Part shown: piece by piece, positions 1 to 10,550 of the stretch
How positions within the stretch are numbered: position 1 is the stretch's first letter
Layout: each line of letters begins with the position of its first letter
Origin: a virus
Taxonomy: Duplodnaviria > Heunggongvirae > Uroviricota > Caudoviricetes
Virus record (IMG/VR): IMGVR_UViG_2609459856_000005
Location: 1-10,550 of that record
DNA length: 10,550 bases
Direction: 5' to 3' (one strand)
Made by a program: the position numbers and the translations under genes
The notes under the pieces: generated by a model
Databases searched by the model: none
Told to the model about the DNA's origin: nothing
What the model saw: the letters and a program-made list of their open reading frames with translations, nothing else

Positions 1-27
1 CCATCCGTTATTTGCGGAGGTGAGGCT

Positions 28-243
28 ATGAAATCCATGGACAAAATTTCAACGGGCATTGCCTACGGCACCTCCGCAGGCAGTGCTGGCTACTGGTTTT
101 TACAGTGGCTTGATCAGGTCAGTCCTTCACAGTGGGCTGCGATTGGTGTACTGGGGAGTCTGGTTCTGGGCTTCCTGACTTATCTGACAAATCTGTACTT
201 CAAAATCAGAGAAGACAAGCGTAAGGCTGCACGGGGAGAGTAA
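28..243 (+). CDS. Class II pinholin/antiholin, phage 21 S-like (71 aa, dual start)
   Basis: 71-aa ORF beginning MKSMDK (Met1 and Met4 in frame, the dual-start motif of phage-21 S giving a 71-aa antiholin and 68-aa holin). Two hydrophobic segments ([19 protein letters not shown] and [23 protein letters not shown]) and a charged C-terminal tail. GGAGGTGAGG Shine-Dalgarno upstream. Sits immediately upstream of a SAR endolysin. Confidence 0.9.
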
Positions 244-247
244 TTCA

Positions 248-598
248 ATGACTCAAAACTATGAACTGATTGTGAAAGGGATCCGCAATTTTGAGAATAA
301 AGTTACGGTAACTTTAGCGTTACGGGACAAAAAACGCTTTGACGGTGAAATTTTTGACCTGGACATCTCGCTGGACCGTGTTGAAGGTGCCGCGCTGGAG
401 TTTTATGAGGCAGCAGCCAGAAGGAGCATCAGACAGGTCTTCCTGGATGTTGCTGCCGGGTTATGTGAAGGGGATGAGCAGTCGCCGGAAAAGCGCCCCG
501 TAATTTTAGATGCGCAGAATGTTTGGATAACCTACAAAGGAAAGCTACCAGGAAGAATTACTGGTTCTCTGAAGACTCCTCCGGAATCACAACCTTAA
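248..598 (+). CDS. Lysis-cassette-associated hypothetical protein, YdfR-like (DUF1327), tentative
   Basis: 116-aa ORF with GGAGAG Shine-Dalgarno, wedged between holin and endolysin. From memory this matches the position and sequence type of ydfR in the Qin prophage of E. coli K-12 (essQ-ydfR-rrrQ order). No TM segment; soluble, mildly acidic. Family call is recalled, not searched. Confidence 0.75.
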   Translation: MTQNYELIVKGIRNFENKVTVTLALRDKKRFDGEIFDLDISLDRVEGAALEFYEAAARRSIRQVFLDVAAGLCEGDEQSPEKRPVILDAQNVWITYKGKLPGRITGSLKTPPESQP

Positions 599-661
599 GT
601 CACTGACCGGAACAGATAAACCTGTCCGTGGGCAGAAACCGATAAATCCTGATAAATATCC

Positions 662-1195
662 ATGAACGCAAAAATCAGATACGGCCTGTCGGCTGCCGTT
701 CTGGCACTGATTGCCGTCGGTGCGCCCGCGCCTGATATTCTCGACCAGTTTCTGGATGAAAAAGAAGGTAACCACACAACGGCATACCGCGATGGGTCCG
801 GCATCTGGACCATCTGTCGGGGTGCCACGATGGTGGATGGAAAACCCGTTTTTCCCGGTATGAAACTGTCGAAGGAAAAATGCGACCAGGTCAACGCCAT
901 TGAGCGTGATAAGGCGCTGGCATGGGTGGAGCGCAATATTAAAGTACCACTGACCGAACCACAAAAAGCGGGTATCGCGTCATTTTGTCCCTATAACATT
1001 GGCCCCGGTAAGTGTTTTCCATCGACGTTTTATAAGCGGCTGAATGCTGGTGATCGTAAGGGCGCATGCGAGGCGATTCGCTGGTGGATAAAAGATGGTG
1101 GGCGCGATTGCCGCATACGTTCAAATAACTGCTATGGACAGGTTATTCGTCGTGACCAGGAAAGCGCATTAGCCTGTTGGGGAATAGATCAGTGA
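662..1195 (+). CDS. SAR endolysin (T4-lysozyme-like muramidase, GH24; R21/RrrQ-like)
   Basis: 177 aa. N-terminal Gly/Ala-rich weakly hydrophobic signal-anchor-release segment ([18 protein letters not shown]). Catalytic triad spacing E35-x8-D44-x5-T50 ([16 protein letters not shown]), as in P1 Lyz and phage 21 R. Follows the pinholin as expected. Confidence 0.92.
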
Positions 1196-1659
1196 GCAGA
1201 GTCGCCGCGATTATTTATGCTCTGGTTATCTGCATCATCGTCTGCCTGTCGTGGGCGGTCAATCATTACCGTGATAACGCCATCACCTACAAAGAACAGC
1301 GTGATAAAAAAGTCAGTGAGCTGAAGCAGGTGACCGCCACCATCGCTGACATGCAGCAGCGTCAGCGTGATGTTGCTGCGCTCGATGCAAAGTACTCGAG
1401 AGAATTAGCCAATGCGAAAGCTGAAAATGAAACTCTGCGCGCTGATGTTGCCGCTGGTCGTAAGCGCCTGCGGGTCAATGCCAGTTGCTCCGCAGCCGTG
1501 CGTGAAGCCACCGGACCCACCAGCGTGGATAATGCAACCAGCCCCAGACTGGCAGACACCGCTGAACGGGATTATTTCACCCTCAGAGAACGGTTGATGA
1601 CGATGCAGAAGCAACTGGAAGGGGCACAGCTATACATTCGTGAGCAATGTCTCAGATAA
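1192..1659 (+). CDS. Rz: Rz i-spanin (inner-membrane spanin subunit)
   Basis: Protein [34 protein letters not shown]... is collinear with lambda Rz (N-terminal TM helix, coiled-coil periplasmic domain, C-terminal ...YIREQC). GTG at 1192 overlaps the endolysin stop (GTGA). The ATG at 1177 given in the ORF track lies inside the endolysin gene and is less likely. Confidence 0.88.
1412..1597 (+). CDS. Rz1: Rz1 o-spanin (outer-membrane lipoprotein), embedded in Rz in the +1 frame
   Basis: 61-aa [23 protein letters not shown]... with signal peptide and lipobox (VSAC, Cys20), a proline-rich mature part ([27 protein letters not shown]) collinear with lambda Rz1, lying entirely inside Rz in a different frame. 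Confidence 0.85.
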
Positions 1660-1814
1660 AAACCGGCCAAGGATAATCCGCTAAAGATTCGCCGGTGGCG
1701 AAAGAGAGCCAAGGTGTCAACCTACGCTATTACTTATGATAATGCAACAGACGAAGCGGGACATATTGGCGCATAACAAATCAGTGCAGGCTAACTGCAG
1801 GAAGAACTTAGGGC

Positions 1815-2081
1815 GTGAACGTAGAAAACCTAAGTAACGCACATTACATCTATAACGAGATGAAAGAGCTACAGCGACAGAAAGGTATACTGGAAAGTGG
1901 TGCAGGGCTTGGTGTGACAATCCAGTCTGCCTATCAATATAGTGCTTTTCTTGAGGCCATACGCCCGCATGCAGTTGCTGAACTTAACAGCCGTATTGAG
2001 GAAAAGAAATCCGCGCTGGTTAATTTGGGTGCTTCCTTCTCTATATACGAGCATAATAAGGCGGGTTGGAAACCCGCCTAA
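1815..2081 (+). CDS. Hypothetical protein (moron ORF, 88 aa from GTG; 73 aa if started at ATG 1860)
   Basis: Open frame in an AT-rich segment downstream of Rz; predicted soluble helical protein with no recognisable motif. Start codon uncertain. Ends at a hairpin shared with the convergent downstream gene. Confidence 0.45.
   Translation: MNVENLSNAHYIYNEMKELQRQKGILESGAGLGVTIQSAYQYSAFLEAIRPHAVAELNSRIEEKKSALVNLGASFSIYEHNKAGWKPA
2060..2078. terminator. Perfect 8-bp hairpin (GGCGGGTT-GGA-AACCCGCC) between convergent genes; possible bidirectional terminator
   Basis: Seen directly: GGCGGGTT at 2060-2067, loop GGA, AACCCGCC at 2071-2078. It overlaps the last codons of the + ORF and lies 8 nt from the stop of the minus-strand gene. 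No clean T-tract on either side. Confidence 0.45.
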
Positions 2082-2086
2082 AGCAC

Positions 2087-2626
2087 TTAGAAACTGCGTG
2101 GAGCTGTGGAAAGAATGGATGCCAGTTCTTCCTTCGATAAATCCCAGCTTCGATTTACAGCGTCAATTTTCTTACACTCATCAAGCATTGCGTTATAGAG
2201 ATGTTCTGTAAGTGAATGAGTATTGGCAATGGGCTGTTTCTGTTCGGGGAAGCGATCAAATTTCTGATACGCCTCAATGATACTGAAGTAATCGCATTCA
2301 TTATTACCGTCGAAACCTGGGAGCTGAATTGCCCCATCATGTATTTTTAGATGATGGTCACGGACTAATTCTTTTTGCTCGTCATCACTAAGTTTCCTGA
2401 AAGCATTGGAAAGTCCGCGATACATATTCAAGACAGCAGTAACAAAATCACGATCTTCTTTACTTGGTTCGTCAACATCCAAATGTGAATATTCGGCCTT
2501 GATAACCCAATCATTACCAGATGACACAGCATATTTAACAAGCTGTGGATCAATATCAGTTTCGATACCTAGGTGGATGGCAATGTCACATAACAAAATG
2601 GTATTGATTTTATCTTTAATATCCAT
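2087..2626 (-). CDS. Hypothetical cytoplasmic protein, possible YfbU-family (UPF0304) member; moron on the opposite strand
   Basis: 179-aa ORF on the minus strand with a strong Shine-Dalgarno (AGAGGG, 7 nt before ATG), AT-rich composition, no TM segment. Motifs MY..L......L.D and L.GFD...E..Y align with my recollection of E. coli YfbU; family call unverified. Confidence 0.8.
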   Translation of the reverse strand: MDIKDKINTILLCDIAIHLGIETDIDPQLVKYAVSSGNDWVIKAEYSHLDVDEPSKEDRDFVTAVLNMYRGLSNAFRKLSDDEQKELVRDHHLKIHDGAIQLPGFDGNNECDYFSIIEAYQKFDRFPEQKQPIANTHSLTEHLYNAMLDECKKIDAVNRSWDLSKEELASILSTAPRSF

Positions 2627-2764
2627 GAGTTAACCCTCTGAAGTAAAAAGTAATATCTACACCCGTTGGCTCATGAAGTCTATTGATCTGTCTCATATCA
2701 GCAGCAAATCTATTCCATGGAGATACTCAATGCAGGTCACCTTTGATTTATATAAGGGCGAAAC

Positions 2765-3115
2765 ATGCCAGCACTAATCCCACGCGCCTGCCGTAAGCGT
2801 GGATGTGCAGGTACAACCACAGACAGTTCTGGTTACTGCGATAAACATCGTGGCGAAGGATGGGTACAGCATCAACGCGGACTGAGCCGCCACCAGCGTG
2901 GCTATGGCTCGAAATGGGATGCCATACGTGCGCGCATACTGAAGCGTGATAATCATCTGTGTCAGAACTGCCTGCGCAATGGGAGAGCCGTTGAAGCCAG
3001 AACTGTGGACCACATCATTCCGAAAGCTCATGGTGGCACGGATGCAGACAGTAACCTGCAGAGTCTGTGCTGGCCCTGTCATAAAGCAAAAACAGCGCGC
3101 GAACGCATCAATTGA
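2765..3115 (+). CDS. HNH endonuclease (phage packaging-associated)
   Basis: 116 aa with N-terminal Cys cluster (CRKRGCAG...YCDKH) and HNH motif (DHIIPKAHGG...N...LCWPCH). Lies directly upstream of the terminase genes, as HNH genes do in HK97-like phages. Confidence 0.92.
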   Translation: MPALIPRACRKRGCAGTTTDSSGYCDKHRGEGWVQHQRGLSRHQRGYGSKWDAIRARILKRDNHLCQNCLRNGRAVEARTVDHIIPKAHGGTDADSNLQSLCWPCHKAKTARERIN

Positions 3116-3262
3116 TAACAGTTCCCATCTGTAGGGGAGGGGCGGGTCAAATCTCTGCAACCCTGGCTGCTCAGTACCGCCGCCTGACCCTTCCTCACAT
3201 CGCCGCAGGTTCGAAAACTTTTTTTGGAAATGTGAACAAACGATTGATAGGTAAGACCGATT
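3116..3262. other. Putative cos (cohesive end / terminase recognition) region
   Basis: Non-coding gap between the HNH and TerS genes, the place where cos lies in HK97-like genomes. Contains GC-rich blocks (GGGGAGGGGCGGG, CCGCCGCC), a T7 tract (3219-3225) and an IHF-consensus match (WATCAANNNNTTR on the minus strand, about 3237-3249). Exact cleavage site not identified. Confidence 0.4.
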
Positions 3263-3745
3263 ATGTCAGGACCTTCGAAACCCCCGCCACGCCTGCATTT
3301 GATACGAGGCAATCCCTCAAAGCGCCCCGTTAAAGACCCCAAAAAAACCGCTAAAAAGGATGAAAAAGGTCTTCCTAAAATTCCGCAGCATTTAGGGGCA
3401 CAGGGGAAGTACTGGTTCAGGCGAATGGCGGAAGAGCTGAATGCGGAAGGGATCATTTCTCAGCTTGATGCGCGTGCGCTCGAGTTGCTGGTGGAAGCCT
3501 ACACCGAATATCGGCATCACTGCGAAACACTCGATGTTGAGGGGTATACCTACCGCACGGAAACGCAGAGCGGTGATGTACTGATTAAGGCGCACCCCGC
3601 GGCGGCAATGAAAGCGGATGCCTGGAAGCGGATCCGGGCAATGCTTGCAGAGTTTGGTATGTCACCGGCAAGCCGGGCTAAAGTAAATATCGCCGGACCG
3701 GATGATGTTGATCCGCTGGCGGAGCTTTTAAAAGCGAGAGACTGA
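3263..3745 (+). CDS. Terminase small subunit (P27 family)
   Basis: 160 aa, basic N-terminus (LIRGNPSKRPVKDPKKTAKKDEKG) typical of P27-family TerS; stop TGA overlaps the TerL ATG (TGATG). Confidence 0.88.
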   Translation: MSGPSKPPPRLHLIRGNPSKRPVKDPKKTAKKDEKGLPKIPQHLGAQGKYWFRRMAEELNAEGIISQLDARALELLVEAYTEYRHHCETLDVEGYTYRTETQSGDVLIKAHPAAAMKADAWKRIRAMLAEFGMSPASRAKVNIAGPDDVDPLAELLKARD

Positions 3746-5502
3746 TGGCAAAAGTGGCTGACGGGATCCGCTACGCCGAACGTGTTGTCGCAGGAGAAAT
3801 TGTTGCTGGCGAATTTGTCCGCTTGGCCTGCCAGCGTTTTCTTGATGATCTGAAGTACGGCGAAGAGCGGGGGATTTATTTCAGTGAACCCCGTGCGCAG
3901 CACATCCTGAATTTCTACAAATTTGTGCCTCATGTAAAAGGGGCGCTGGCAGGCCAGCCCATTGAACTGATGGACTGGCATGTATTTATCCTCATTAATA
4001 TTTTTGGTTTTGTCATTCCGCTGGTGAATGAAGAGACCGGGGAAGTTGTCATGCGCAGCGATGGCAGCGGACGTCCGGTGATGGTGCGCCGGTTCCGGAC
4101 GGCGTACAACGAAGTCGCCCGTAAAAACGCAAAATCAACTCTGTCATCGGGTATCGGCCTGTATATGACGGGGGCAGATGGTGAAGGCGGTGCTGAGGTG
4201 TATTCAGCCGCCACCACGCGTGACCAGGCCAGAATTGTGTTTGAAGACGCCAAAAATATGGTCAGAAAAGCCCGGTCGACACTCGGGCGGTTGTTTGATT
4301 TCAACAAGCTGGCGATTTACCAGGAGCAGAGCGCATCAAAATTTGAACCGCTTTCCTCGGATGCAAACAACCTGGATGGTCTGAACATCCACTGCGCCAT
4401 TATTGATGAGCTGCATGCACATAAAACCCGCGACGTGTGGGACGTTCTGGAAACGGCAACCGGTGCCCGCCTGCAGTCCCTGTTATTTGGTATCACCACG
4501 GCAGGGTTTAACAAGGAAGGGATTTGTTACGAGCAGCGTGATTACGCCATCAAGGTATTGCGTGGCTATAACAGCGATGTGGAGGGCGCTGTAAAAGACG
4601 ACTCCTACTTTGCGATTATTTACACCCTCGATGAGGGAGATGATCCGTTTGATGAAACGGTCTGGCAGAAAGCGAATCCCGGCCTGGGCATCTGTAAACG
4701 CTGGGATGATCTGCGTCGCCTGGCGAAAAAAGCGAAAGAACAGGTCTCTGCGCGGGTGAATTTTTTTACCAAACACATGAATGTGTGGGTAACAGCAGAG
4801 TCTGCCTGGATGGACATGATTAAGTGGGAGAAGTGCGAATACATTGCCCCACGACATGAGCTGAAAACGTATCCCATGTGGGTCGGCGTTGACCTTGCTC
4901 ATAAGATTGATATCTGTGCGGCGGCAAAACTCTGGCGAACGGATAACGGGCATGTTCATGCCGATTTTAAATTCTGGCTTCCGGAAGGACGGCTGGAACG
5001 ATGCTCGCGGCAGCAGGCAGAACTTTACCGGAAGTGGGCGGAGATGGATAAGCTGATTCTGACGGATGGTGATGTTATCGATCATGCTCAGATAAAAAGT
5101 GACTTACTGGAATGGATTGGTGGTGAAAACCTCAGGGAACTGGGATTTGACCCGTGGAGCGCGATGCAGTTCAGCCTGGCACTGGCTGAAGAAGGGATAC
5201 CGCTGGTGGAGGTTCCGCAGACGGTTCGCAATCTGTCAGAGGCCATGAAGGAAACGGAATCACTGGTCTATGCCGGGCGTTTCCATCACAGCAATCATCC
5301 GGTCATGAACTGGATGATGTCTAACGTTACGGTAAAACCGGACAAAAACGACAATATCTTCCCGAATAAATCCACGCTGGAAGCCAAAATCGACGGCCCT
5401 GTTGCGATGTTTACAGCAATGAGCCGGATGCTGGTCAATGGTGGTGAACCGGAGCTGGATCTGTCTGAACATCTGGTCAGCGTGGGCATCCGTTCGCTTT
5501 AA
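3745..5502 (+). CDS. Terminase large subunit (HK97-type, Terminase_1-like ATPase/nuclease)
   Basis: 585 aa. Walker A-like RKNAKST (4120-4140), Walker B-like hhhhDE ([10 protein letters not shown]), C-terminal nuclease-domain length. Position after TerS and before portal. Confidence 0.95.
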
Positions 5503-5513
5503 CCGAGGTCATT

Positions 5514-5696
5514 ATGTTTCTGATAATTCTCGCGCCACTGGTGGGCGTGCTGGGTGCGCTTTTGCTGGCGTATGGTGCCTGGCTGATTTATCCCCCGGCG
5601 GGGTTTGTTGTTGCCGGGGTGCTGTGCCTGTTCTGGTCGTGGCTGGTGGCGCGATATCTCGACCGTACACAGCCGTCTGTCGGCGGAGGTAAATAG
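5514..5696 (+). CDS. Small hydrophobic membrane protein (60 aa, two predicted TM helices), function unknown
   Basis: [52 protein letters not shown]... with GAGGT Shine-Dalgarno 5 nt upstream. Its stop overlaps the portal GTG start, suggesting translational coupling. Confidence 0.55.
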
Positions 5697-6937
5697 TGTT
5701 CTTTTCGGGATTATTTCAACGAAAAAGTGACGCGCCGGTGACCACGCCAGCAGAGCTGGCGGATGCCATCGGGTTGTCTTACGACACCTATACCGGAAAG
5801 CAGATCAGCAGTCAGCGGGCCATGCGACTGACGGCGGTTTTTTCCTGCGTCAGAGTGCTGGCAGAGTCGGTCGGGATGTTGCCCTGCAATCTGTATCACC
5901 TGAACGGCAGCCTGAAACAGAGAGCCACCGGCGAACGTCTGCATAAGCTGATCTCCACGCATCCCAATGGCTATATGACGCCGCAGGAGTTCTGGGAGCT
6001 GGTGGTCACCTGTCTGTGCCTGAGGGGAAACTTTTACGCCTACAAAGTGAAAGCATTTGGCGAAGTGGCTGAACTGCTGCCCGTCGATCCCGGTTGTGTG
6101 GTACCGAAGCTTAACAGTCGCTGGGAGCCGGTCTATCAGGTCACATTCCCGGACGGTTCCACGGATGTACTGAGCCAGGAAGATATCTGGCATGTGCGCA
6201 CGCTGACGCTGGACGGTCTGGTGGGACTGAATCCCATCGCCTATGCCCGCGAGGCAATATCGCTGGCAGCAGCGACCGAAGAGCACGGGGCCAGACTGTT
6301 CAGCAATGGTGCGGTGACGTCCGGTGTGTTGCGTACAGAACAGACGCTGTCGGATCAGGCTTATGAGCGCCTGAAGAAAGATTTTGAGGAGCGTCACACC
6401 GGGCTTGGCAATGCTCACCGCCCGATGATCCTTGAGATGGGGCTGGACTGGAAGTCGATGGCGCTGAACGCCGAGGACAGCCAGTTCCTGGAAACCCGCA
6501 AGTTTCAGCTTGAAGAAATCTGTCGTCTGTTCCGGGTGCCGTTGCACATGGTGCAGAACACCGATCGCGCCACCTTCAACAATATCGAAGAGCTGGGGCT
6601 GGGATTTATCAACTATTCACTGGTGCCGTATCTGACCCGCATCGAACAGCGGATCAACACCGGACTGGTACGAAAAAGTAAGCAGGGCGTTTATTACGCC
6701 AAATTTAACGCCGGGGCGTTACTGCGCGGGGATATGAAGTCCCGTTTTGAAGCCTACGCCACCGGGATCAACTGGGGAATTTACTCTCCCAATGACTGCC
6801 GCGACCTGGAAGATATGAATCCGCGTCCCGGTGGGGATGTCTATCTCACACCGATGAACATGACCACGAAACCATGCGATGGCAGTAAAGCCGGTAAGCA
6901 GAAGGATAACGCCAATGCAGACGAAACAACGTCTTGA
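5696..6937 (+). CDS. Portal protein (HK97 family)
   Basis: 413 aa. GTG start at 5696 preceded by GGAGG (5685-5689). Size and order (TerL-portal-protease-MCP) are those of the HK97 head module. Confidence 0.93.
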   Translation: MFFSGLFQRKSDAPVTTPAELADAIGLSYDTYTGKQISSQRAMRLTAVFSCVRVLAESVGMLPCNLYHLNGSLKQRATGERLHKLISTHPNGYMTPQEFWELVVTCLCLRGNFYAYKVKAFGEVAELLPVDPGCVVPKLNSRWEPVYQVTFPDGSTDVLSQEDIWHVRTLTLDGLVGLNPIAYAREAISLAAATEEHGARLFSNGAVTSGVLRTEQTLSDQAYERLKKDFEERHTGLGNAHRPMILEMGLDWKSMALNAEDSQFLETRKFQLEEICRLFRVPLHMVQNTDRATFNNIEELGLGFINYSLVPYLTRIEQRINTGLVRKSKQGVYYAKFNAGALLRGDMKSRFEAYATGINWGIYSPNDCRDLEDMNPRPGGDVYLTPMNMTTKPCDGSKAGKQKDNANADETTS

Positions 6938-7565
6938 TGTACCGCTGAGTCTGAAATCTGTCAGTGACTCCGGTGAGTTTGAAGGGTATGGCTCCGTCTT
7001 TGGTGTAAAGGACAGCCACGATGATGTGGTGATGTCCGGGGCATTTGCTGCTTCACTGCGGGCGTGGAGTGACAGAAAAGCGTTACCTGCGCTGCTCTGG
7101 CAGCACCGCATGGATGAACCCATCGGTGTTTACACCGAAATGAAGGAAGACGATGTCGGGCTTTACGTCAGGGGACGGTTGCTTATTGATGATGATCCCC
7201 TCGCAAAACGCGCACATGCACACATGAAGGCCGGTTCGTTAACCGGCCTTTCTATTGGGTACGTCCTGAAAGACTGGGAATACGACCGGAGCAAAGAAGC
7301 CTTTCTGCTGAAAGAAATCGACCTCTGGGAAGTCAGCCTGGTGACGTTCCCGTCTAACGACGAGGCGCGGATCAGCGACGTCAAGAACGCACTGGCCCGC
7401 GGGGAAATCCCCGAACAGAAAAAAATCGAAAGAGTCCTGCGTGATGTCGGACTCTCCCGTACCCAGGCCAAAGCATTCATGGCCGGGGGCTATGGCGCAC
7501 TGTCCCTGCGCGACGCTGAGGATGTGGGCTCTGCACTGAATGCACTGAAAAATCTAAACTTCTAA
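6915..7565 (+). CDS. Prohead maturation protease (HK97 family, peptidase S78-like)
   Basis: Protein MQTKQRLDVPLSLKSVSDSGEFEGYGSVFGVKDSHDDVV... between portal and major capsid genes. Start chosen at ATG 6915 (AAGGA upstream, 23-nt overlap with portal) rather than the in-frame ATG 6879, which has no Shine-Dalgarno. Confidence 0.88.
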   Translation: MQTKQRLDVPLSLKSVSDSGEFEGYGSVFGVKDSHDDVVMSGAFAASLRAWSDRKALPALLWQHRMDEPIGVYTEMKEDDVGLYVRGRLLIDDDPLAKRAHAHMKAGSLTGLSIGYVLKDWEYDRSKEAFLLKEIDLWEVSLVTFPSNDEARISDVKNALARGEIPEQKKIERVLRDVGLSRTQAKAFMAGGYGALSLRDAEDVGSALNALKNLNF

Positions 7566-7579
7566 TCAGGAGAAATACG

Positions 7580-8785
7580 ATGGCGGTTGATATTAAAGAT
7601 GTCGAACAGGTCGCGCAGGAGCTGCAGCAGAAGTTTGACGACTTCAAAGCAAAGAACGACAAGCGCGTGGATGCGATTGAGCAGGAAAAAGGCAAACTTG
7701 CCGGGCAGGTGGAAACCCTGAACGGGAAACTCAGCGAGCTGGAAAACCTCAAAAGCGATCTTGAAAAAGAGCTGCTTGAGCTGAAACGTCCGGCAGGTGG
7801 TGCGCAAAATAAACTGGCCACCGAGCATAAAGAAGCGTTTGTGGGCTTCCTGCGTAAAGGCCGTGAAGACGGTCTGCGCGATCTGGAGCGCAAGGCATTG
7901 CAGGTGGGCACCGATGAAGACGGTGGCTATGCCGTGCCGGAAGCACTGGATCGCAACATTCTCACCCTGCTGAAAGATGAAGTGGTGATGCGCCAGGAAG
8001 CCACGGTGATCACCGTTGGTGGTTCCGACTACAAAAAACTGGTGAATCTGGGCGGCACGGCTTCCGGATGGGTTGGCGAGACTGACGCGCGCTCCCAGAC
8101 CGCCACCTCAAAACTGGGACTGATTGAACCTTTCATGGGGGAAATCTACGGTAACCCGCAGGCCACCCAGAAAATGCTGGATGATGCCTTTTTCAACGTG
8201 GAAGCATGGATCAACAGCGAGCTGGCAACCGAATTTGCCGAACAGGAAGAAATTGCCTTTACCACCGGCGATGGTACCAAGAAGCCGAAAGGGTTCCTAG
8301 CGTATGAATCCACTGATGAAACCGATAAGGTCCGGGCGTTCGGCAAACTTCAGCATATTGTATCCGGCGAAGCGACGGCGGTGACCGCAGACGCCATTAT
8401 CAAACTGATTTACACGCTGCGTAAGGCACACCGCACTGGCGCGAAGTTCATGATGAACAACAACAGCCTGTTTGCCATCCGTCTGCTTAAAGACAGCGAG
8501 GGTAACTATCTGTGGCGTCCGGGGCTGGAACTGGGGCAGCCGTCCTCTCTGGCGGGTTACGGTATCGCTGAAAACGAACAGATGCCGGATATCGCCGCTG
8601 ATGCGAAAGCCATTGCATTTGGTAACTTCAAACGGGGTTACACCATCGTTGACCGTATCGGCACCCGCATTCTGCGTGACCCGTACACCAATAAACCGTT
8701 TGTCGGTTTTTATACCACCAAGCGCACCGGCGGGATGCTGGTCGATTCGCAGGCCATCAAACTGCTGAAGATTGCAGCGGCGTAA
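7580..8785 (+). CDS. Major capsid protein (HK97 fold) with N-terminal delta/scaffolding domain
   Basis: 401 aa. AGGAG Shine-Dalgarno. The first ~100 aa are a charged coiled-coil (EQVAQELQQKFDDFKAKNDKRVDAIEQEKGKLAGQVETLNGKLSELENLKSDLEKELLELKR) typical of the HK97 gp5 delta domain removed by the prohead protease. Directly downstream of the protease gene. Confidence 0.95.
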   Translation: MAVDIKDVEQVAQELQQKFDDFKAKNDKRVDAIEQEKGKLAGQVETLNGKLSELENLKSDLEKELLELKRPAGGAQNKLATEHKEAFVGFLRKGREDGLRDLERKALQVGTDEDGGYAVPEALDRNILTLLKDEVVMRQEATVITVGGSDYKKLVNLGGTASGWVGETDARSQTATSKLGLIEPFMGEIYGNPQATQKMLDDAFFNVEAWINSELATEFAEQEEIAFTTGDGTKKPKGFLAYESTDETDKVRAFGKLQHIVSGEATAVTADAIIKLIYTLRKAHRTGAKFMMNNNSLFAIRLLKDSEGNYLWRPGLELGQPSSLAGYGIAENEQMPDIAADAKAIAFGNFKRGYTIVDRIGTRILRDPYTNKPFVGFYTTKRTGGMLVDSQAIKLLKIAAA

Positions 8786-8790
8786 TCACT

Positions 8791-8820
8791 CAGGGGCGCG
8801 GAACCGCACCCCCTGTTCTG
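8791..8820 (+). terminator. GC-rich imperfect hairpin immediately after the capsid gene (possible attenuator or mRNA-stabilising stem-loop)
   Basis: CAGGGGCGCGG-AA-CCGCACCCCCTG followed by TGTTCTG; the stem has one mismatch or bulge and the T-tract is poor. Confidence 0.3.
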
Positions 8821-8834
8821 ACGGGTGAAGAATC

Positions 8835-9023
8835 ATGATCCTGAAACAAGATCTGAAATGGTCACCGGACGGTATGCGTGTTGAGATTATTCGGGCCGGT
8901 GAGTATGAAGATAAAGAATTACCCGAACGGGTACGCGAAATTGCCACTGCAGCTGGGATTGTCTCTGATAAGAGAACACCTGTTGCGCGGGGGGCTGATA
9001 AGTCTAAAAAACAGCATTCATAG
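8835..9023 (+). CDS. Small hypothetical protein (62 aa) between capsid and head-tail connector genes
   Basis: ORF MILKQDLKWSPDGMRVEIIRAGEYEDKELPERVREIATAAGIVSDKRTPVARGADKSKKQHS has protein-like composition and fills the 250-bp gap. Shine-Dalgarno weak. The overlapping minus-strand ORF 8786-9034 looks like a shadow frame. Confidence 0.4.
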   Translation: MILKQDLKWSPDGMRVEIIRAGEYEDKELPERVREIATAAGIVSDKRTPVARGADKSKKQHS

Positions 9024-9034
9024 AGGTTGCCCAA

Positions 9035-9340
9035 ATGATGCCCACTCTGGAAGAGCTTCGTGTTCAGTGCCGGATTGATGATGACAATGAACAGGAGAAT
9101 TCTCTTCTTATGATGTATCTGGCTGCTGCCAGGGAAGAGGCTGAAAAGTTTTTAAACCGGACGCTTTACGATGAAACTGTTTCTGAGCAGGATACGACCG
9201 GGCTTGTAATAACACCTCTGATAAAACTGCGTCTTATGCAACTGGTTGGCTACTGGTACGAGAACAGGGAAATGCAGGATGCAGTGCCTGATTTTTTCTA
9301 TACCGGACTGCGGATGTATCGGTTTCATCCCGGAACATAG
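9035..9340 (+). CDS. Head-tail connector protein (gp6-like)
   Basis: 101 aa, MMPTLEELRVQCRIDDDNEQENSLLMMYLAAAREEAEKFLNRTL... is the characteristic N-terminus of gp6-like head-tail connector proteins. AGAGGT Shine-Dalgarno; position after the capsid gene. Confidence 0.85.
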   Translation: MMPTLEELRVQCRIDDDNEQENSLLMMYLAAAREEAEKFLNRTLYDETVSEQDTTGLVITPLIKLRLMQLVGYWYENREMQDAVPDFFYTGLRMYRFHPGT

Positions 9341-9348
9341 GAGGATTC

Positions 9349-10550
<1,202 letters not shown>

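Follow-up and report, generated by a model that had tools for sequence, protein, structure and literature searches.

A YfbU-family moron at the lysis/packaging junction of lambdoid prophages encodes a candidate Kamadhenu-like defence protein

In a lambdoid prophage of Escherichia coli, the segment separating the lysis and packaging modules (1660-2764) is a mosaic that combines an o-spanin gene remnant, a late-operon gene (ORF88) and a cassette encoding the 179-aa YfbU-family protein ORF179. The right two-thirds of this segment, from about 2043 to 2764, constitute a self-contained moron with its own leader, the YfbU-family gene and a stem-loop, whose anatomy, family and fold, mobility and conserved position are documented here. 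By analogy with Kamadhenu, a single-gene abortive-infection system of lactococcal plasmids, anti-phage defence is the best-supported function of ORF179, and we give this candidate role roughly even chances. The initial annotation of this DNA had regarded a defence function as plausible, and we infer the same.

The window, i.e., the whole stretch of 10,550 nucleotides analyzed, was assigned by gene-family searches to the late region of a lambdoid, HK97-like E. coli prophage. It contains genes for a class II holin (28-243) and a lysozyme (662-1195), between which lies a YdfR/DUF1327 gene (248-598) shared with phage 640R1 and the related E. coli prophages under comparison and missing from phage phi467. 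The variable slot is bordered on the left by the Rz i-spanin gene (1177-1659, plus strand; Pfam Phage_lysis, E 2e-49), with Rz1 embedded at 1412-1597, and on the right by an HNH endonuclease gene (2765-3115, plus strand; Pfam HNH, E 1.9e-16), which is the first gene of the packaging module. A P27-type small terminase (TerS, 3263-3745) and the large terminase (TerL, 3745-5502) follow, and genes for the portal, protease, major capsid protein and head-tail connector (the last at 9035-9340) lie downstream of TerL. An IS3-family, ISEc31-like element within 9349-10550 starts at about 9369, some 20 bp inside the head-closure gene that comes after the connector gene; this insertion probably renders the present prophage copy defective for virion assembly. 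A prophage of E. coli APEC E12053 matches positions 1-5441 at 98% identity. This near-identity stops at 5441, close to the end of the TerL gene, and the portal and head genes beyond that point belong to a different module, as is ordinary in lambdoid mosaicism.

Computed base composition bore out the low G+C content first ascribed to the segment between the two modules (42.1% at 1660-2764 versus 50.8% at 1-1659 and 53.3% at 2765-9400). Of all 1105-bp intervals in the window, the one beginning at 1650 has the lowest G+C (41.8%), and outside the segment no interval of that length falls below 48.9%. ORF179 by itself has 39.3% G+C and a GC3 of 34.4% against about 51-54% in the flanks; ORF88 stands at 45.3%. 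Inspection of related prophages likewise agreed with the proposal of a variable junction, an accessory hotspot that can also receive bor, because the site was found empty, occupied by bor or occupied by the ORF179 cassette. At the empty junctions of phage phi467 and of E. coli SCU-115, SMS-3-5 and CFS3313, the Rz stop is followed by 42 bp and then the HNH start, whereas phage vB_EcoS-640R1 carries a reverse-oriented bor and a small ORF there. The blastn homology to empty-site and bor-carrying phages ends at about 1629-1658, and that to empty-site phages restarts exactly at 2765. In a set of 5426 complete E. coli genomes, we counted the HNH-TerS module at 1170 places (1055 genomes), the ORF179 cassette at 231 places, all chromosomal (225 genomes), and the empty junction in 205 genomes, so that other cargo must occupy the rest of the module places.

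The segment is not, as first supposed, a single island with two partner genes, since ORF88 and ORF179 each occur without the other and the left end derives from the o-spanin gene of another phage. Next to Rz, the junction DNA at 1660-1744 has no blastn match to empty-site, bor-carrying or Klebsiella loci. It is followed at 1745-1837 (plus strand) by the 3' remnant of an o-spanin gene, 31 codons without a start, which tblastn revealed through 77% identity to residues 38-68 of a Klebsiella 67-aa lipobox protein (E 1.5e-12). To judge from this match, the parent was a separate o-spanin lipoprotein gene of the type carried by Klebsiella and Enterobacter prophages. The remnant overlaps the ORF88 start by 23 nt, which matches the arrangement of the intact o-spanin gene and the 76-aa gene in Klebsiella, and colinear blastn homology with Klebsiella prophages begins at 1748. 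It lies just 3' of the complete embedded Rz/Rz1 pair and is a recombination scar that marks the join of two different lysis cassettes. A minus-strand terminator-like site at 1799-1785, inside the remnant, was dropped because its fold equals that of shuffled sequences (z -0.25).

ORF88 (1815-2081, plus strand, GTG start, 88 aa) matches phrog_5415 end to end (PHROG; E 2e-38 over 1-76/76). This family comprises at least 276 clusters, nearly all of 76 aa, from Citrobacter, Salmonella, Klebsiella and E. coli; in the alignment, the family stop TAA reads ATA in ORF88, which adds 12 residues through the hairpin described below. Identity to the Klebsiella gene by codon position (87/93/68%) is as expected of a coding gene. 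In the lambda-like prophages of E. coli, a YfbU neighbor is missing and the 76-aa gene overlaps the spanin gene at the latter's end. ORF88 is therefore a late-operon gene outside the moron, of a kind normally coupled to spanin genes. A role tied to lysis or to the end of the late operon is a low-confidence guess. AlphaFold models the protein as a hairpin of two helices (pLDDT 77). Comparison of this model with BFVD was uninformative, with only uncharacterized phage proteins at E > 0.1, and ORF88 has no match in Pfam or NCBIfam. PADLOC-DB v2.0.0 (2023) yielded no match at E <= 1 for ORF88 or ORF179. As anticipated by the initial annotation, neither protein matched a virion, lysis or packaging family in Pfam and PHROG searches.

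The gene coordinates and RNA folding verified that ORF88 and the minus-strand ORF179 (2087-2626, ATG start) meet at a perfect hairpin. This stem-loop (2060-2078; GGCGGGTT-GGA-AACCCGCC) has a stem of 8 bp, or 9 bp when the flanking A-U is counted, and a centroid energy of about -15 kcal/mol (z -2.2 to -2.4 versus shuffles). It is located within the final seven codons of ORF88 and 8 nt past the ORF179 stop. Klebsiella prophages keep it with one compensatory pair change (GGCGGGG/CCCCGCC), and every diverged cassette has its own, different strong stem-loop just past the YfbU-like stop, two of which are canonical intrinsic terminators. The hairpin of the window has no clean T-run and was not called by the consensus terminator scan, and an Rfam scan of 1400-3300 gave no match at E <= 1. 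It is probably a terminator or 3' stabilizer of the minus-strand transcript and possibly acts in both directions. On the other side of the gene, ORF179 is preceded by a 138-bp noncoding leader (2627-2764, minus strand) that is conserved with Klebsiella, with 83% identity overall and near-invariance across the 75 nt beside the ATG. The leader contains a GAGGG ribosome-binding site (2634-2638) and also bears that of the divergent HNH gene. The standard promoter scan found no minus-strand promoter, and a relaxed one picked out a weak sigma-70 candidate (TAGACT-19 nt-GATATT, 2682-2652) with 8 of the 12 consensus positions.

ORF179 is a solo YfbU-family protein with a GFDGNNE motif and has no co-oriented neighbor gene in the window. 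Residues 46-172 match Pfam PF03887 (YfbU) at 41.8 bits (cut-off, 25), and the protein matches phrog_6084 end to end. Its score against the NCBIfam equivalog PRK05445 stays below the cut-off (32.8 versus 90 bits); ORF179 is thus a distant paralogue and not the housekeeping chromosomal YfbU. An AlphaFold model built from 35 homologues (pLDDT 91.7) shows the two-domain helical YfbU fold, and fold searching returned YfbU only. The same fold is shared with E. coli YfbU at 15% identity, and the family profile matches PDB 1WPB and 4LR3 at E 4e-9, with the GFD...E motif common to both. Within the subfamily, C13, W40, G104-F105-D106, E110, H137 and Y144 are invariant and N108 and N109 nearly so; H137 aligns with a Gln in YfbU. 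Two other assignments were discarded, i.e., a Cfr10I/Bse634I restriction endonuclease, which scored 19.1 bits against a Pfam cut-off of 27 and was not returned by the fold search, and a stathmin match, a spurious sole return of a single-sequence PDB search. The accessory gene is not "undescribed," as it had been called, given that RefSeq already lists ORF179 as "YfbU family protein" and that the YfbU-domain anti-phage protein Kamadhenu has been published (PMC11381338). In the literature searched, we found no experiments on ORF179 or any enterobacterial homologue.

Comparison of prophages indicates that the cassette has a history of its own. Between E. coli and Klebsiella pneumoniae prophages, ORF179 retains 93.5% DNA identity (87% at third codon positions), whereas the flanking HNH, TerS and TerL genes retain 65-71% (42-45% at third positions) and ORF88 is intermediate at 83%. 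The cassette was therefore exchanged much more recently than its surroundings and moves horizontally between enterobacterial prophages. As with other morons, close relatives differ in whether they carry it between the same gene pair, and the base composition of ORF179 is unlike that of the flanks. Homologues with 50-63% protein identity in Superficieibacter, Enterobacter hormaechei, Providencia rettgeri and one further group are invariably flanked by the lysis cassette on one side and the terminase genes on the other and run antisense to the late operon without exception, irrespective of the lysis type (holin_2_1/lysozyme/Rz, holin_8/GH19 or DUF2570) and of the terminase type (P27-type or DUF1441/GpA). 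An ORF88 homologue is absent from all of these loci. As far as the literature searched shows, this antisense rule at the lysis/terminase junction is undescribed. In three otherwise diverged prophages (L098, L101 and L104), the motif GGAGTACCTTTT occurs about 125-140 nt upstream of the YfbU-like start, between this gene and a divergent DUF1441 small-terminase gene, and may be part of cos. The ORF179 genes of the cassettes listed from 224 E. coli genomes are intact, with identities of 97.5% or more, and the cassette is present in ExPEC, APEC and STEC genomes.

The GFDGNNE subfamily extends well beyond enterobacterial prophages. Exhaustive profile searching collected 2080 representative clusters (833 at E <= 1e-10), mostly of 175-190 aa, including homologues on small plasmids of Acinetobacter, Psychrobacter, Xanthomonas and Enterococcus and one in a Yersinia P2-like phage, downstream of the tail-fibre genes. 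The neighborhoods of 79 loci from GTDB species representatives disclosed two recurrent partners. In 28 loci, a same-strand gene 2-26 nt upstream or overlapping encodes a protein of about 166 aa with a hydrophobic N-terminus, which has no Pfam or PADLOC match; this pair occurs in Pseudomonas, Psychrobacter, Vibrio-like taxa, E. coli prophages and others (e.g., upstream genes at L019 7465-7968, L024 7468-7968 and L110 5486-5995, with 25 further loci). One E. coli copy, from another type of prophage, is flanked by DNA polymerase A and an SNF2 helicase. The E. coli version at L110 5486-6552 pairs a 169-aa protein of this kind, again with a hydrophobic N-terminus, with a YfbU-like protein of 183 aa. 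In 6 loci, an FRG-domain (PF08867) gene matching the PADLOC candidate PDC-S15 directly precedes the YfbU-like gene within one operon (e.g., L069 1939-2661 and L079 7120-7833, with four further loci), at times overlapping it by a few bases, which suggests that PDC-S15 is at least sometimes a two-gene system. Both partner architectures are undescribed as far as the literature searched shows. An Acinetobacter plasmid copy adjoins AbiD. In a Superficieibacter prophage, the equivalent slot (L096 6990-8488) accumulates defence-type cargo, with a PD-T4-6/Stk2-like Ser/Thr kinase and a PP2C phosphatase beside the YfbU-like gene; the same prophage has a HicAB pair upstream of the holin. Another 150 neighbors of distant homologues, taken with no control set, are mixed and include a few defence genes (FRG, TIR, AriAB, PD-T4-6 and a pAgo-associated nuclease), a modest signal that lends weak support to a defence role.

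ORF179 is most likely expressed in the repressed prophage, presumably from its own leader. If it acts as Kamadhenu does, the solo protein would respond when a superinfecting phage makes a recombination or late-stage product, and would abort that infection. Upon induction, late transcription running antisense across ORF179 could silence the gene and so spare the resident phage. A less probable reading is that ORF179 is a lysogenic-conversion gene with a host benefit other than defence, such as stress tolerance or DNA-damage cell death. It would accommodate the fold shared with E. coli YfbU, whose deletion altered survival after DNA damage (PMC2646832), the carriage of the cassette by ExPEC, APEC and STEC genomes, and the company of bor, a serum-resistance gene, among the morons of this junction. 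The low identity to YfbU and the equivalog score far below cut-off speak against it, as do the partners and neighbors of the family, which include FRG/PDC-S15, AbiD and kinase genes. Moreover, carriage on phages and small plasmids across many phyla, with soil and marine taxa among them, fits mobile-element conflict better than a niche-specific host trait. We consider it unlikely that ORF179 serves lytic growth, either through anti-defence or as a DNA-end/packaging factor beside cos. In its favor, the enterobacterial prophage copies always adjoin the terminase/cos region, and Kamadhenu genetics implicate recombination proteins (PMC12184496). However, every such copy is antisense to the late operon and so cannot be expressed by late transcription, closely related phages do without the gene, and homologues reside on nonphage plasmids and elsewhere in the P2-like phage.

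Two further explanations concern the segment as a whole, and we hold both to be very improbable. ORF88 and ORF179 lie side by side in convergent orientation, here as in Klebsiella prophages, in a block better conserved than its flanks, as might befit a two-gene toxin-antitoxin or sensor-effector system. An obligate pair is nonetheless rejected, because each gene occurs independently: ORF88 homologues lack ORF179 in E. coli lambda-like prophages, and the 50-63% homologues of ORF179 lack ORF88. The ORF88 family is also far larger (276 versus 44 clusters), and the two genes form separate, opposed transcription units. That the segment is merely decaying, functionless recombination debris would agree with the o-spanin remnant at its left end, the lost ORF88 stop, the IS insertion in a head gene of this prophage copy and the existence of a few truncated ORF179 variants. 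Against such decay, third codon positions take most of the substitutions in both ORFs, ORF179 is intact and nearly identical among the listed E. coli copies, its leader is conserved, and the family motifs are invariant across phyla.

Kamadhenu-like defence by ORF179 would have consequences at several levels. If the protein blocks superinfection, about 4% of complete E. coli genomes and many K. pneumoniae genomes carry a defence gene that PADLOC does not flag, which would be relevant to phage-therapy host range. Kamadhenu would extend from a lactococcal curiosity to a family across many phyla, and the orphan YfbU fold would gain a tractable phenotype in E. coli genetics. The antisense placement beside terminase genes offers a testable model of how a prophage could escape its own abortive-infection gene. 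A bolder, joint reading is that the GFDGNNE branch is a large unrecognized family of anti-phage sensors (about 2000 clusters at 50% identity) that would detect phage recombination proteins in three architectures, i.e., solo in the enterobacterial lambdoid lysis/terminase slot, in an operon with a small membrane-anchored protein or in one with FRG (PDC-S15), and whose antisense placement in prophages would confer built-in self-immunity through late-transcription interference on induction. We regard this composite picture as speculative and, taken whole, doubtful.

Known systems resemble ORF179 to different degrees. Lambda bor shares the slot, the reverse orientation to the late operon and the atypical base composition; Bor, however, is an outer-membrane lipoprotein, whereas ORF179 is an unrelated, soluble helical protein. 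The YfbU fold was solved in 2004 with no function assigned, and we know of no biochemistry for it. E. coli YfbU itself (UPF0304; PDB 1WPB and 4LR3) is a conserved chromosomal gene of housekeeping type, linked to MazF/DNA-damage cell death and not to phage (PMC2646832), whereas ORF179 is a sporadic, low-GC prophage gene. PDC-S15 is itself only a candidate system of FRG-domain proteins; such a gene accompanies the YfbU-like gene in 6 of the 79 wider-subfamily loci, whereas ORF179 has no FRG partner. A type II toxin-antitoxin system consists of two cotranscribed small genes, whereas ORF88 is convergent to ORF179 and evolutionarily independent of it. The closest counterpart is Kamadhenu (pUCCL624_130, BioProject PRJNA1086404), in which a single gene of Lactococcus plasmids, encoding a YfbU-domain protein of 180 aa, confers abortive infection (Grafakou et al. 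2024, PMC11381338); its escape mutants map to a phage single-strand annealing protein, the Sak-like SSAP G22 (Mosterd et al. 2025, PMC12184496). No Lactococcus record was among the PLSDB tblastn matches listed for ORF179 and an Enterococcus plasmid YfbU or among the best 120 matches of a Firmicutes-seeded profile. The likeness to Kamadhenu comes from Pfam family, size (179 versus 180 aa), fold match and solo architecture and not from an alignment; like it, ORF179 is a single YfbU-domain gene of about 180 codons on a mobile element, here a prophage. Kamadhenu is plasmid-borne in a Gram-positive host, where its phenotype has been demonstrated and escape mutants obtained (PMC11381338, PMC12184496, PMC13064643), whereas ORF179 is prophage-borne in Enterobacteriaceae and is a candidate known from sequence.
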